Shown in pieces: positions 53,680 to 57,589 of a DNA stretch of 64,000 nucleotides. Each line of letters starts with the position of its first letter. Positions within the stretch are counted from its first letter, which is position 1. Made by a program: the position numbers and the translations under genes. Below the pieces are notes generated by a model. That model was not told where the DNA came from. It saw nothing but the letters and a program-made list of their open reading frames with translations, and did no database searches. This stretch comes from Pelobium sp. (GTDB lineage: Bacteria; Bacteroidota; Bacteroidia; Sphingobacteriales; Sphingobacteriaceae): the NCBI GenBank assembly GCA_039918235.1, contig JBDSHZ010000043.1, positions 22,891 to 86,890 on the forward strand, in the 5' to 3' direction.

Positions 53680-53784
53680 TGTTGCAAAATAAGGAAATTA
53701 GTACAAAGTAGGGAGTAGCAAGAATCAAGATTTTAAAAAGTATATAAGCTTTTCAACAACCCTTCATCCCTCTTCCTAATTTTC

Positions 53785-53792
53785 TAACTTTG
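53785..53792 (+). promoter_or_regulatory. -7 promoter element for ruvX
   Basis: TAACTTTG upstream of the 53836 start. Confidence 0.55.
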
Positions 53793-53835
53793 CAATGCTT
53801 TTAGCCTTTCGCTTTTAGCTCTCAGCTTAAAAGAA

Positions 53836-54258
53836 ATGGCCAGATTAATGTCTTTCGATTTTGGAACCAAACGTTTGGGAATTGCCGTTACAGACCAGAT
53901 GCAAATGTTTGCCACAGGCTTAACAACTATTCACCCAAAAGATGCAGTAGATTTTATCAAAAAATATTTATTGACAGAAGAAGTGGAAACCTTTGTTTTG
54001 GGCGAACCCAAGCAAATGGATGGGACTCCCTCACAATCTGCACCACAGGTGAAAGGGTTCGTCACAATTTTAAAAAAACATTTTCCGGCTATTCCGGTAG
54101 AAATGATGGACGAGCGCTTTACCTCAAAAATGGCTTCAGCAGTTATCGCTCAAAGTGGCTTAAAGAAAACAGACCGACAGAATAAAGGATTGGTAGATAC
54201 CGTCTCGGCAGTAATTATTTTGCAATCCTATCTCGAGAAAAAGAGTTTAGGTTTTTGA
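53836..54258 (+). CDS. ruvX: YqgF/RuvX pre-16S rRNA nuclease / Holliday junction resolvase-like
   Basis: FDFGTKRLGIAVTD, DERFTS and VDTVSAVIILQSYL. Confidence 0.95.
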   Translation: MARLMSFDFGTKRLGIAVTDQMQMFATGLTTIHPKDAVDFIKKYLLTEEVETFVLGEPKQMDGTPSQSAPQVKGFVTILKKHFPAIPVEMMDERFTSKMASAVIAQSGLKKTDRQNKGLVDTVSAVIILQSYLEKKSLGF

Positions 54259-54322
54259 TTGCTTTCCCAAATCAAAAAGCGGATTAAAAATTTTAGATTT
54301 GATAAATCAGTTTTGTGATATT

Positions 54323-55468
54323 ATGAAGTTTGTAAGACTTATAAATTCCATTAAAGATACTTCTCAGCATTTTCAAACCAATGCCGTAAAAGCAATTAAC
54401 ATCAACCTCACTTTAAGAAATTGGATGGTTGGTTATTTTATTGTTGAATTTGAACAGCGTGGCGAAGACCGAGCTGAGTACGGCAGTAAAATATTAACTG
54501 AAATATCAAAAAAAATAAAACTTAAAGGTTTGGCAGAAACCAATCTTAAAATCTGTCGGCAGTTTTATAATTCATACCCAATTTTGCTTTCTGTTGTTTT
54601 AAAAAACAACCAACAGATTCTTCCTTTATCAATTCGTCAGTCACTGACTGACGAATTTGAATTTAATGATAATCAAGGAGTTATAATTCGTCAGTCAGTG
54701 ACTGACGAATTCAAAGATTCTAAAAATGACCTGCAAGATTACGATTATATCTATAAACTTTTAACAGTTAGTTCTTTCACCCATTTTGTAGAGCTGATTA
54801 AGATAGAAGATGAAATTAAGAGAAAATTTTACGAACTTTTAATCTTAAAAACCACTTTATCTGTTAGAGAATTACAAAGGCAAATCAGTTCCCTTACATA
54901 TGAACGCTTTGGTTTCTCAAATAATAATGACAAAGCATTAAATGAATTGGCCAATAAAATCACACCCGTTCAAAACACTGATATTGTAAAGTCACATTAT
55001 ATTTTTGAATTTTTAAACTTAGGACAGCCGCAATTAGTAGAAGAATCTACTTTAGAACAAGCCTTAATTCAGCATCTTCAAAATTTTATTTTGGAGTTAG
55101 GCAACGGGTTTTGTTTTGAAGGGAGGCAAAAGAGAATTCTTATTGGTGAGGAATACTTTTTCATTGATTTGGTCTTTTACCATCGTATTTTAAAATGCCA
55201 TGTAATTGTTGAACTAAAAACAGAAAAAGCAAATCATGAACATATAGGGCAACTGAAAACCTATATTCAGTACTACAAGAAAAATATTGTTCAAACTGGA
55301 GATAACCCACCAGTTGGATTGCTCCTGGTTACCGACCAGAATAAAACCTTAGTAGAATATGCTGTTGCCGATGCAGATAAAGAAATATTTGTAAGTCAGT
55401 ATCTTTTACAATTACCTAGAAAAGAACAATTGGTTGATTTTATCAATCAAGAAATTAAAAAACTTTAA
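54323..55468 (+). CDS. YhcG/DUF1016 PD-(D/E)XK nuclease-domain protein
   Basis: NWMVGYFIVE.EQ.GEDRAEYG, SFTHF, SVREL.RQI, FILELG.GF.F, FIDLVFYH, VELK, GQL..Y and NPPVGLLL. Likely start is MKFVRL at 54323. Confidence 0.93.
   Translation: MKFVRLINSIKDTSQHFQTNAVKAININLTLRNWMVGYFIVEFEQRGEDRAEYGSKILTEISKKIKLKGLAETNLKICRQFYNSYPILLSVVLKNNQQILPLSIRQSLTDEFEFNDNQGVIIRQSVTDEFKDSKNDLQDYDYIYKLLTVSSFTHFVELIKIEDEIKRKFYELLILKTTLSVRELQRQISSLTYERFGFSNNNDKALNELANKITPVQNTDIVKSHYIFEFLNLGQPQLVEESTLEQALIQHLQNFILELGNGFCFEGRQKRILIGEEYFFIDLVFYHRILKCHVIVELKTEKANHEHIGQLKTYIQYYKKNIVQTGDNPPVGLLLVTDQNKTLVEYAVADADKEIFVSQYLLQLPRKEQLVDFINQEIKKL
54631..54711. repeat. Two 27-bp palindromic direct repeats inside the YhcG coding sequence
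   Basis: AATTCGTCAGTCA-C-TGACTGACGAATT (54631-54657) and AATTCGTCAGTCA-G-TGACTGACGAATT (54685-54711), separated by a 27-nt spacer. Confidence 0.95.
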
Positions 55469-57589
55469 ATGCTTTCCCCAAACCAACTGCTTAAGAAATA
55501 TTACGGCTATGATGAATTTCGTCCGCAACAGGAAGAAATTATTGAAAAAGCGTTAAGTGGTGCAGATGCTTTGGTGTTGATGCCAACCGGTGGTGGTAAA
55601 TCAATTTGCTTTCAGATTCCCGCATTGTTGTTGCCGGGAACAGCAATTGTGATTTCTCCATTAATTTCTTTAATGAAAGATCAGGTTGATGCTTTGCGGA
55701 GCAATGGTATTCCGGCAGCTTACTTTAATAGCTCACAGACTTTTGAGGAACAACAGGCAATTTTAAATGCCTGCCATCAAGGAGAAATCAAGTTGCTTTA
55801 TATCTCACCAGAAAAATTACTGTCGGAAATTGAGGTAATTACCAAGGCCTGTAAACCTTCCTTATTTGCCATTGATGAAGCGCATTGCGTTTCTTCCTGG
55901 GGCCATGATTTTAGACCGGAATATACTCAAATGGGTTTTTTGAGAGCTCGTTTTTCTCATATTCCCTTTATGGCTTTAACTGCCACGGCAGATAAGGTGA
56001 CACGGAGAGATATCATCAAACAGCTCAAATTCAAAAACCCACAGGTTTTCTTAAGTTCTTTTGATCGAAAAAATTTGAGCTTAGAGGTGAGAATTGGCGT
56101 AAAACCAAAAGAAAAAACCAAAGAGATTATTGATTTTGTACTGGAGCGAGAAAATCAAAGTGGGATCATTTATTGTTTGAGCCGGAAGAAATGTGAAGAA
56201 GCTTATGAGGCTTTGCAGCATGCTGGCATCAATGCCATGTTTTACCACGCAGGGATGAATAGTGAAGCCCGCTCTTCAGTTCAGGATAGGTTTATCAATG
56301 ATGAACTGCAGGTGGTTTGTGCCACCGTTGCTTTCGGGATGGGAATAGATAAGTCTAATGTGCGTTGGGTGATTCACTACAATCTGCCAAAAAATATAGA
56401 AGGATATTATCAGGAAATTGGGAGGGCCGGAAGAGATGGATTGGCCTCTGAAACTATTTTATATTATAATTATGCCGATTTAGCCTTATTGAACAAGTTT
56501 GCAGGAGAGGGAGCAATGGCTGAAGTGAATTTAGAAAAGCTAAAAAGGATGCAGAATTTTGCAGAAGCGGATAGCTGCAGAAGGAAAATATTGCTCAATT
56601 ATTTTTCAGAAAATCCTGAACATAACTGTGGAAACTGTGATGTTTGCCATCATCCTAGAAAACATTTTGACGGTACCATTATGGTGCAAAAAGCACTTTC
56701 TGCTATAGTGAGGATGGGGGAAAAGGAAGGGGGCAATATGGTGATTGATGTTTTAAGAGGATCAAGAAAACAAGATCTGGTAGCTGCTGGCTATGATAAA
56801 ATTAAAACTCATGGTGCCGGGGCAGAAGTTCCTGCTATGGATTGGCAACGCTACATCATGCAAATGCTGAATTTGGGCATCATTGAAATGGCTTATGACG
56901 AGAACTTTGCTTTAAAAATCACGCCTTTAGGAAATGACATTCTATTCCATAAAAAGAAAATTGAATTAACAGTTTTACAGGCTATTAAACCAACTGAGAA
57001 AACGGAAAGAACCAGAAAATCTGTTTCCATAAGTTTAGAAGAGGAATTGTTTAATATTTTGAGAAAAGTTAGGAGAGACTTTGCCATTGCAGAAAATGTA
57101 CCGGCTTATGTTATTTTTTCTGATGCTAGTTTACAGGAAATGGCTCAGCAAAAACCAATGACTGATAATGATTTACTACTGGTTTCTGGAGTTGGGGAGC
57201 ACAAATTGGCTAAATATGGCGAGACTTTTTTAAATGCCATTATTGATTTTTCGTCAAATTCAGGCATTAAAAAACAAAAAGGAAGTAGTTATCAAGAAAC
57301 ATTAAATCTTTACAAGCAGGATGTTTCTGTGGAAGATATTGCTAAACAAAGAGGCTTAGCTTTACCCACTGTTTTTTCACATTTGGCACAGCTTTACTTA
57401 AACGGAGACCTTTCCACTTTGTCTAATTTTATCAATGAAGAAGAAATTGTACAAATAAAAGAAGCCATGAAAGCCACAGGAGAAAGCAAAGTCATGAAAC
57501 CGATTTTTGAATACCTTAAAGAAGCAGTGCCATATCATAAAATTAGATTGGCAATGGCTGTTTTAGAAAAAAGAGAAAGATCCAATTAA
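55469..57589 (+). CDS. recQ: ATP-dependent DNA helicase RecQ
   Basis: MPTGGGKS, DEAHCVSSWGHDFRPEY, ATVAFGMGIDK, QEIGRAGRDG, Zn-binding Cys cluster, RQC, HRDC (PAYVIFSDASL) and C-terminal HTH. Confidence 0.97.
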   Translation: MLSPNQLLKKYYGYDEFRPQQEEIIEKALSGADALVLMPTGGGKSICFQIPALLLPGTAIVISPLISLMKDQVDALRSNGIPAAYFNSSQTFEEQQAILNACHQGEIKLLYISPEKLLSEIEVITKACKPSLFAIDEAHCVSSWGHDFRPEYTQMGFLRARFSHIPFMALTATADKVTRRDIIKQLKFKNPQVFLSSFDRKNLSLEVRIGVKPKEKTKEIIDFVLERENQSGIIYCLSRKKCEEAYEALQHAGINAMFYHAGMNSEARSSVQDRFINDELQVVCATVAFGMGIDKSNVRWVIHYNLPKNIEGYYQEIGRAGRDGLASETILYYNYADLALLNKFAGEGAMAEVNLEKLKRMQNFAEADSCRRKILLNYFSENPEHNCGNCDVCHHPRKHFDGTIMVQKALSAIVRMGEKEGGNMVIDVLRGSRKQDLVAAGYDKIKTHGAGAEVPAMDWQRYIMQMLNLGIIEMAYDENFALKITPLGNDILFHKKKIELTVLQAIKPTEKTERTRKSVSISLEEELFNILRKVRRDFAIAENVPAYVIFSDASLQEMAQQKPMTDNDLLLVSGVGEHKLAKYGETFLNAIIDFSSNSGIKKQKGSSYQETLNLYKQDVSVEDIAKQRGLALPTVFSHLAQLYLNGDLSTLSNFINEEEIVQIKEAMKATGESKVMKPIFEYLKEAVPYHKIRLAMAVLEKRERSN

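Follow-up and report, generated by a model that had tools for sequence, protein, structure and literature searches.

A co-varying 27-bp palindrome in the coding sequence of YhcG/DUF1016 nuclease genes, present in two perfect copies in a Pelobium yhcG-family gene

Results

The window analyzed here is a stretch of 64,000 nucleotides from contig JBDSHZ010000043.1 of Pelobium sp. (assembly GCA_039918235.1), and the subject of this work is a yhcG-family gene encoding 381 amino acids (aa) within it (54323..55468; like all features described below, on the + strand) that carries two 27-bp palindromes inside its reading frame. Palindrome unit 1 (54631..54657) reads AATTCGTCAGTCA C TGACTGACGAATT and encodes IRQSLTDEF, while unit 2 (54685..54711) reads AATTCGTCAGTCA G TGACTGACGAATT and encodes IRQSVTDEF. 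Each unit is laid out as 13+1+13 with 13 of 13 pairs and a centre on codon position 1, and the two starts are 54 nt apart, separated by a 27-nt coding spacer (54658..54684) that finishes a Phe codon, encodes EFNDNQGV, and begins an Ile codon. A reading made without database searches (hereafter the sequence-only reading) had described two perfect in-frame palindromes that keep all of their synonymous sites, and both statements proved correct. The copies are identical at 26 of 27 positions, and because the centre base is the sole difference (CTG to GTG, Leu to Val), all synonymous sites are equal. In addition, the reverse complement of unit 1 is identical to unit 2, so that the pair forms a perfect 27-nt inverted repeat, and the whole 81 nt of both units and spacer can be read as 40-nt arms with 85% complementarity. 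In other two-unit genes, however, the centres are not typically complementary as this C and G are, and the perfection of this 27-nt inverted repeat is therefore probably due to chance.

When the unit pattern was searched for at up to 3 mismatches, 2 matches were retrieved in the window and 0 in 100 shuffles. A search of the 3.38-Mb genome for other copies, which the sequence-only reading had proposed, returned just the two window copies for the 23-nt unit core at up to 2 mismatches, and no unit copies were found in viral contigs. The genome contains 155 palindromes with at least 12 of 13 pairs, the majority of them terminator-like. Only 21 of these lie inside frames of at least 200 codons, and the AATT...AATT type accounts for three of the 21, namely the two window units and one in a paralogous DUF1016 gene. 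With 2 copies only in the genome and none in viral contigs, a dispersed palindromic repeat was rejected, whether a repetitive extragenic palindrome or bacterial interspersed mosaic element (REP/BIME), a miniature inverted-repeat transposable element (MITE), or a Rickettsia palindromic element (RPE). An array resembling clustered regularly interspaced short palindromic repeats (CRISPR) was likewise rejected, as repeats and spacer are in-frame coding sequence and conserved in homologues, and the earlier analogy to a repeat-spacer-repeat arrangement is unsupported for the same reason. No match of the units to a CRISPR family was found (the genome was not searched for cas genes).

Inverting the 81-nt region in silico changes only 13 spacer bases and creates in-frame stops, a TAA among them (IRQSLTDEL*), and deletion of one 54-nt period keeps the frame of the window gene; such an inversion or deletion could act as an off switch or produce a length variant, respectively. 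A shorter palindrome, GTTGTTTTAAAAAACAAC, with 8-bp arms and a 2-nt loop, is present at 54593-54610, close to the site of the first canonical unit in many homologues (YPxILGxxTQxF). No recognizable unit was found at that site in the window gene.

The window gene belongs to the DUF1016/YhcG family of PD-(D/E)XK nucleases, and its product has a predicted catalytic core and, in the structural model, a restriction-endonuclease-like fold. Homologues and a 381-aa gene call both place the start at ATG 54323, with an in-frame TTG upstream at 54299 (open reading frame 54299/54323..55468). Pfam matches were obtained for DUF1016_N (approximately 54350-54907; E 7e-23, 81.7 bits, curated cut-off 32.8) and for the PD-(D/E)XK nuclease domain YhcG_C (approximately 54980-55426; E 4e-52, 176.6 bits, curated cut-off 32.5), and the protein also matches the PADLOC defence candidate PDC-S02 (E 2e-112). 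Residues D282 and K299 (DLVFYH ... VELK) are invariant across 117 sequences. A first structural model was poor, with a predicted local distance difference test score (pLDDT) of 52.8, and an AlphaFold model with a whole-model mean of 79.9 was used instead. In a fold search of the PDB with this model, the C-terminal domain resembled dimeric NucS/EndoMS (entries 2vld and 5gke, E 4e-5 to 7e-5) and the N-terminal domain retrieved no significant match; since the nuclease domain alone was matched, no DNA-binding fold is shown for the N-terminal domain. A sequence search for solved structures yielded none relevant to YhcG.

DUF1016_N is split by a loop that carries both units, the peptides of which are residues 104-112 and 122-130 of the protein. 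The model has a single stretch of low confidence, and both peptides fall within it or at its border: residues 106-131 have pLDDT below 50, and the means of the 10-residue blocks across 101-130 are 52, 43, and 45. The predicted disorder of this stretch agrees with the proposal of the sequence-only reading that the peptides sit in a variable linker of the N-terminal domain. In an assembly of the same genus (G017), the orthologous gene is split across two contigs (C415 and C174), with matches overlapping at residues 122-171. The overlap is adjacent to the repeated palindromes, and the repeat probably broke the assembly there.

We then define the element across the family, using a sample of 126 distinct family genes with DNA drawn from genome, metagenome, and assembly collections. 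As defined here, the YhcG coding palindrome is 27 nt long (13 pairs plus a centre), has its centre on codon position 1, and lies in the loop between CRQFY..YP and SF[ST]H. A palindrome was called strict when all nine positions at offsets 3-11 formed Watson-Crick pairs in succession. Loop DNA contains 74 of these (3.0 per kb), all with their centres on codon position 1; outside the loop, the genes contain 3 (0.024 per kb), and the flanking DNA contains 25 (0.049 per kb). Their density in the loop is thus more than 100-fold that of the rest of the genes. A relaxed criterion of at least 9 of 11 pairs yields 194 units in 117 of the 126 genes, again with every centre on codon position 1, whereas controls yield 18 in 39,753 centres. 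Both window units fit the definition in full (13/13, phase 0, loop residues 25 and 43, as in orthologues). The 27-bp self-complementary element with co-varying arms is therefore family-specific and locked in position, and the window holds two perfect copies of it. The statement in the sequence-only reading that other DUF1016 genes carry palindrome-encoded peptide repeats of different sequence thus proves correct and general, and all 13 pairs are found to change on both sides.

Watson-Crick pairing is 86-98% at most of offsets 2-13, the exceptions being 71% (offset 9) and 74% (offset 13). At offset 14 it is only 34%, and at offset 15 it is 29%. It is this sharp drop beyond pair 13 that sets the unit at 27 nt family-wide. 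The outer AATT is near-invariant and the inner arm is free, with 112 distinct left arms observed; inner G/C positions are conserved as well, with a variable 5-bp block between them and the AATT. The commonest unit spacing is 54 nt (25 of 76 neighbouring unit pairs). In the closest 27 homologues the peptide recurs as a pair, either unchanged or in forms such as IRQTLSDEF and ILGT[VM]SQE[LS], and these variant forms fit double changes that preserve the palindrome (TCA..ACT to ACA..TCT; CGT CAG..GAC to CTT GGG..CAA). Placing the centre on codon position 1 matches a wobble base with a second codon base in nine of the 13 pairs and leaves only four pairs between first bases. This phase costs the protein little, and most pairs could be broken without any change to its sequence. 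Two orphan palindromes of the AATT type were also observed downstream of yhcG and outside any recognized yhcG frame: AATTGTGCAAGAG C CGCTTGCACAATT at locus L078 (centre 1780, 73 nt downstream) and AATTGTGCAACGC A CCGTTGCACAAAT at locus L028 (centre 3691, 747 nt downstream).

It is the symmetry of the DNA, rather than the peptide, that evolution has kept, while arm sequence and peptide drift through paired changes. When each loop was synonymously recoded 200 times with the gene's own codon usage, a mean of 0.23 strict palindromes (maximum 2) was obtained, compared to the 74 observed. Among identical residues in nine orthologue pairs, the codon is shared in 99 of 105 cases inside the units and in 42-59% of cases in other parts of the gene. 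When 146 units were aligned without gaps, 91.5% of the cells were paired, a percentage inflated by the picking of units for pairing, whereas shuffles reach 68.9% (0 of 500 attain the observed value) and slid controls 24-46%. Changes on both sides were found at all 13 pairs, in 424 cells against 159 expected, meaning that the arms co-vary with each other and the encoded peptide is dragged along. The covariation found is thus one of arm with arm, and the co-varying protein/site system raised by the sequence-only reading is only conjectural. Mismatches at offsets 3-12 comprise 14 G·T, 77 A·C, and 74 others. At offsets 8 and 11, G·T occurs 1 and 0 times in 194 units, even though only the commoner codon (GAT or GAG) would be needed to produce it. 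The A·C cases at offsets 3-13 fall in first-base pairs in 51 of 97 instances, reflecting changes such as E to K or D to N. Both strands of the units fold alike. Because of the recoding null, the covariation, the lack of G·T tolerance, and the strand symmetry, we place the constraint on the DNA and not on the peptide or the mRNA. The earlier suggestion of selection on the nucleic acid is accordingly upheld as far as DNA-level constraint is concerned; the process behind it may be selection or another one that preserves base pairs.

Several known kinds of element were considered at this step. No terminator-like sites were found in 53700-55700, and an intrinsic terminator was rejected on this ground and because the units lie inside a conserved reading frame. 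Sigma-70-like promoter matches numbered three versus 6.5 expected, with a consensus that is unfit for Bacteroidota. Rfam searches at permissive thresholds returned only sub-threshold matches to hairpins of the microRNA type, on both strands, and no curated RNA family fits. A structured RNA element was rejected on the intolerance of wobble pairs, the strand symmetry, and these sub-threshold matches.

The units of one gene resemble each other more than those of different genes (8.8 versus 6.1 of 12 positions), and where units within a gene do differ, the differences are fully compensated in 111 of 304 cases. Different arms, each self-complementary, occur within a single gene in E. coli K-12 (three units), in L037 and L007 (four units each), and in L021, and the three DUF1016 loci of the window's genome have three different arms. 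Folded as single-stranded DNA, each window unit gives a stem of 12 bp closed by a 3-nt loop (-11.2 kcal/mol, z about -6.4 to -6.6). Since units 1 and 2 are mutual reverse complements, a 27-bp stem is also possible across the 81-nt region (-30.7 kcal/mol, z -11.7). A dimeric protein binding duplex DNA needs neither symmetry at positions that it does not read nor the retention of differing units, so the presence of differing yet self-complementary units in one gene favours a hairpin or cruciform over a sequence-specific operator. From these comparisons we infer that the property maintained is the intrastrand pairing of each unit, as a hairpin in single-stranded DNA or as a cruciform.

A paralogue in the same genome (G000), its second DUF1016 gene, is 33% identical to the window gene across the aligned part and again has two units 54 nt apart, AATTGGTCAACAG A TTGTTGACCAATT and AATTAGTCAACAA C TTGTTGACCAAAT, at 9658-9738 of contig C79, with arms (TGGTCAACA) unlike those of the window. 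A third DUF1016 copy, truncated and containing stops, has a unit at 25087-25113 of contig C98, CTCTCACCA C TGGTGAGAG, near the start of the family similarity, and retains a 9-bp perfect core.

Matches to yhcG were found in 4465 of 5426 complete E. coli genomes. The K-12 gene (L167) has three units at gene positions 316, 355, and 394, with 12, 11, and 12 of 13 pairs, respectively, and the single mismatch of unit 1 is A·C. The E. coli alleles inspected (L167, L170-L177) carry 1, 2, or 3 units, which indicates fast turnover of unit number and bears out the repeat-number variation anticipated by the sequence-only reading. The allele of O157:H7 OK1 is 78 nt (2 x 39) shorter than that of K-12 and its remaining unit is perfect, and alleles at 91% identity have two units, of which the first has TGTGCAGACA arms and is also perfect. 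Two of four truncation classes of E. coli yhcG break at a unit, and they do so independently: in an E. coli B derivative (L168), homology to K-12 ends at nt 406, at the edge of unit 3, and in strain 203740 (L169), the break falls in the left arm of unit 3, with an IS1 end attached at nt 385. The truncation in the B derivative lies next to a small transposase gene. A further insertion, of IS3 at nt 235, lies outside the units. The truncations at units fit a structure that forms in vivo, but they would be explained by fragility alone as well.

The yhcG gene is a lone insert between ruvX and recQ, with nothing else between the two. The ruvX (YqgF) gene occupies 53836..54258 and recQ occupies 55469..57589, and in six Pedobacter relatives with an empty site the recQ ATG lies within a few bases of the ruvX stop. 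The insertion duplicated the 5' end of recQ. A decayed upstream copy of the target (54254..54307) contains the ruvX stop and approximately the first 49 nt of recQ and now serves as the yhcG leader, while the downstream functional copy (55464..55517) comprises the end of yhcG, the stop TAA of which abuts the recQ ATG at 55469, and the recQ 5' end. The local alignment of the two copies scores 44, versus a maximum of 35 in 2000 shuffles and approximately 2000 random window segments; the duplication is about 55 nt long with gaps and is old and decayed. A yhcG gene between ruvX and recQ was found in the window genome, P. segetis, the same-genus assembly G017, and one metagenomic relative, and no remnant of the target duplication was detectable in the orthologous loci L003 and L158. 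With an empty site in relatives, a flanking duplication of more than 30 bp, and no mobility gene, yhcG at this locus has the features of an insertion with long target duplication.

Long flanking direct repeats (score at least 40) were found for 9 of 105 yhcG genes, versus 2 of 135 neighbouring genes and 0 of 400 mismatched pairs, with the limit that some such cases arise from tandem paralogues. Loci bracketed by repeats include L065, L036, L078, L097, L128, L026, L010, and L015, in unrelated contexts, and the repeats inspected at L065, L036, L097, L128, and L026 are 39-94 nt long. Inside the decayed target duplicate of the window, 22 nt upstream of the yhcG ATG, lies TAGATTTG (54294-54301). 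The consensus of the Bacteroidota -7 promoter element is TAnnTTTG, which TAGATTTG matches, and the duplicated target may have supplied the yhcG promoter.

Discussion

The reading that we prefer, and to which we give about an even chance, is that each unit acts by self-pairing as a DNA hairpin or cruciform and is kept perfect by hairpin-templated correction together with selection, with the gene's own nuclease as the likeliest partner. The arms would probably be kept perfect by correction through template switching, with selection acting for retention. The unit would then most likely serve in cis as structured DNA used by the dimeric, NucS/EndoMS-like nuclease that the gene itself encodes, as the similarity of the predicted nuclease domain to those enzymes suggests. 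Such a site could limit the nuclease's own expression or activity, or alternatively could aid the recombinase-free movement of the gene by insertion with long target duplication. A much broader proposal, which we regard as improbable, is that YhcG/DUF1016 genes at large are self-contained modules of a nuclease plus its own structured DNA site. In such a module, the nuclease would recognize its own hairpin or cruciform, and this recognition would either restrain it until infection or DNA damage or provoke the breaks at which promoterless, recombinase-free genes insert at gene boundaries with long target duplications.

We would like to note that several points weigh against self-pairing as a function. 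Strict pairs, strand symmetry, and compensated double changes are all also produced by template switching in which the palindrome has no function. Arms of 12-13 bp around a G+C-containing centre do not readily form cruciforms in duplex DNA, which means that any structure would require single-stranded DNA. Fixed position and codon phase are not independent evidence because they are inherited from one ancestral unit, and the conserved AATT ends could mirror a peptide preference for Ile and Glu-Phe/Leu. Units were picked at 9 or more of 11 pairs, which raises the percentage paired and leaves the covariation and recoding tests unaffected. As the genome has no extragenic copies of the site, any trans role here would be limited to the gene itself. 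Finally, a comparison of N- and C-segment identity in the 126 genes gave no mosaicism at units; the outliers from the N/C correlation were due to two poorly aligned sequences, and mosaic genes with a crossover at the units were accordingly rejected.

The main rival to a functional structure is neutral maintenance, in which an ancestral quasi-palindrome in a loop tolerant of almost any peptide is kept perfect only by template switching and conversion between units, with no function for the gene. Strictly Watson-Crick pairing, the likeness of the strands, and compensated double changes are what such a process would leave, the loop is predicted to be disordered, unit number turns over rapidly within E. 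coli, and even the truncated, stop-containing fragment on contig C98 still has its perfect core. The process itself is also documented: perfect inverted repeats in Proteobacteria are more conserved than expected, with support for preferential template-switch correction of imperfect repeats (Lavi et al. 2018, PMC5941160), and template switching is reported also to be able to create and maintain hairpins (Monttinen and Loytynoja 2022, PMC8794818). Neutral maintenance does not, however, explain why 117 of the 126 genes, across phyla, have retained units while such palindromes are some 100-fold scarcer elsewhere in these genes and in their flanks, nor does it explain the sharp boundary after pair 13 and the near-invariant AATT ends. 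Loops of this kind normally shed segments by deletion, and a lost unit could not be regained. We therefore consider neutral maintenance unlikely, though with a real chance of being correct. A plain duplex operator is a different matter, since here a dimer of the protein's N-terminal domain, or another regulator, would bind the 27-bp sites in duplex form. Autoregulation would follow from the resulting roadblock, with the inner arm as a co-evolving specificity 'address'. Perfect symmetry on both strands, sites 54 bp (about 5 helical turns) apart at what is also the commonest spacing, conserved outer AATT and inner G/C around a variable 5-bp block, and the greater likeness of units within genes than between them would all suit an operator, and a control site that travels with the gene would be of use to a toxic nuclease encoded by a lone gene without a promoter. 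Nevertheless, the covariation extends to all 13 pairs, although symmetry is needless where the protein does not read, and multi-unit genes often carry different self-complementary 'addresses' (E. coli K-12, L037, L007, and L021). The N-terminal domain also lacks a significant fold match, and there are no other copies of the site in the genome, leaving the operator with a low probability.

Three further explanations carry smaller probabilities. The units could be sites of recombination or variation, that is, substrates for slippage, deletion, or inversion that alter linker length or turn the gene off, or crossover points that shuffle gene halves. The E. coli alleles do differ by whole units, with the 78-nt (2 x 39) indel among them, two independent truncations lie in or at the edge of unit 3, a 54-nt period can be deleted in frame, and inversion of the 81 nt creates a TAA in frame. 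In addition, DUF1016 genes are enriched beside genes targeted by programmed inversions (PMC9881135). The lack of N/C mosaicism among the 126 genes and the atypical C/G centres nevertheless argue against such a role, breakpoints at palindromes are expected from fragility alone, and we hold this explanation to be quite improbable. Structure in the mRNA, with hairpins serving stability, processing, or translational pausing between domains, had been raised by the sequence-only reading and would draw on the great stability expected of single units and of the 27-bp pairing of unit 1 with unit 2; covariation with a defined length is, moreover, a classic signature of RNA elements. G·U is nearly absent from the core, however, including at offsets 8 and 11, where it would be costless, both strands fold alike, there is no terminator-like tail, and the Rfam matches are sub-threshold, hairpin-type, and on both strands, which makes a transcript hairpin or processing site very improbable. 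Lastly, IRQ[ST]x[TS]DEF could be a functional peptide repeat with the DNA symmetry as its by-product, and the peptide is indeed conserved in the closest subfamily. Recoding of the same peptides almost never yields a palindrome, though, the peptide changes across the family are palindrome-preserving (IRQ..D to ILG..Q to IWQ..A; S..T to T..S), and the region is predicted to be disordered. A peptide-only explanation is already contradicted by the recoding and covariation results, and we give it hardly any credence.

YhcG/DUF1016 is a widespread uncharacterized nuclease family with a member in E. coli K-12 and a place among the PADLOC candidate defence genes (PDC-S02), and the element gives a concrete handle on what these nucleases act on. 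An element in coding sequence that is kept for its base pairing and forces the protein to change in step is rare. If the site is the nuclease's own substrate or control element, it would be a chromosomal, defence-linked addition to the few proteins that carry their own DNA target, and it might account for the movement of such lone genes. A neutral site would, by contrast, rank among the clearest natural cases of a palindrome kept for a very long time by template switching alone. A full-text literature search retrieved no paper describing a palindrome in DUF1016 or yhcG genes, and where papers name DUF1016/YhcG, it is solely as a predicted PD-(D/E)XK nuclease that is encoded on mobile elements or at loci for restriction-modification or inversion.

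Among known systems, the correction of quasi-palindromes by template switching (the Ripley model) is similar to the units in its perfect Watson-Crick arms, compensated multi-base changes, and single-stranded DNA hairpin intermediate (PMC5941160; PMC8794818). It is, however, a mutational process and not an element, and it predicts no 27-bp size, no AATT ends, and no retention at one site across phyla. For the gene, rather than the palindrome, the closest likeness is to restriction-modification genes, for which insertion with long target duplication has been described with its mechanism unexplained (Furuta, Abe and Kobayashi 2010, PMC2853133). Similar to those genes, yhcG encodes a defence-type nuclease, lacks an accompanying mobility gene, sits at a gene boundary that is unoccupied in relatives, and is flanked by a duplicated target of more than 30 bp; in contrast, the phenomenon was described for restriction-modification units, and the yhcG duplication is old and decayed (about 55 nt, with gaps). 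Any link between the target duplication and the palindrome is speculation. In Nematomorpha, mitochondrial genes contain coding palindromes of up to 284 bp, in many genes and in a lineage-specific manner (PMC6649704). These share with the YhcG element perfect inverted repeats that overlap coding sequence and an upkeep at the DNA level despite a cost to the protein, but they are long, spread over many mitochondrial genes, and specific to a lineage, whereas the YhcG element is specific to a gene family.

Integron attC sites resemble the units in that the fold is conserved rather than the sequence and in their link to single promoterless gene cassettes. Unlike the units, which are perfect and inside the reading frame, attC sites are imperfect with extrahelical bases, lie 3' of the reading frame, and need IntI. 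With a perfect palindrome in the middle of the frame and ruvX and recQ as neighbours, an attC site was rejected, and no integrase gene was found between ruvX and recQ (IntI was not searched for elsewhere in the genome). In work of Ogata and colleagues from 2000 and 2002, RPEs are said to be translated in frame inside protein-coding genes. RPEs are dispersed selfish repeats of 100-150 bp found in many unrelated genes and intergenic regions. The likeness is that a protein gains additional residues, at a place where they are tolerated, through translation of palindromic DNA; the YhcG element differs in being 27 bp long and restricted to one loop of one gene family, with arms that co-vary and no dispersed copies in the genome. 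Some initiator genes contain their own DNA target, as with the lambda ori in gene O, the pT181 ori in repC, and the phiX174 ori in gene A. YhcG is not a known initiator, and its gene is chromosomal with no replicon context. Nevertheless, as a model of how the YhcG element might work, these genes offer a DNA-acting protein with a structured or repeated target that lies inside its own reading frame and travels with it.

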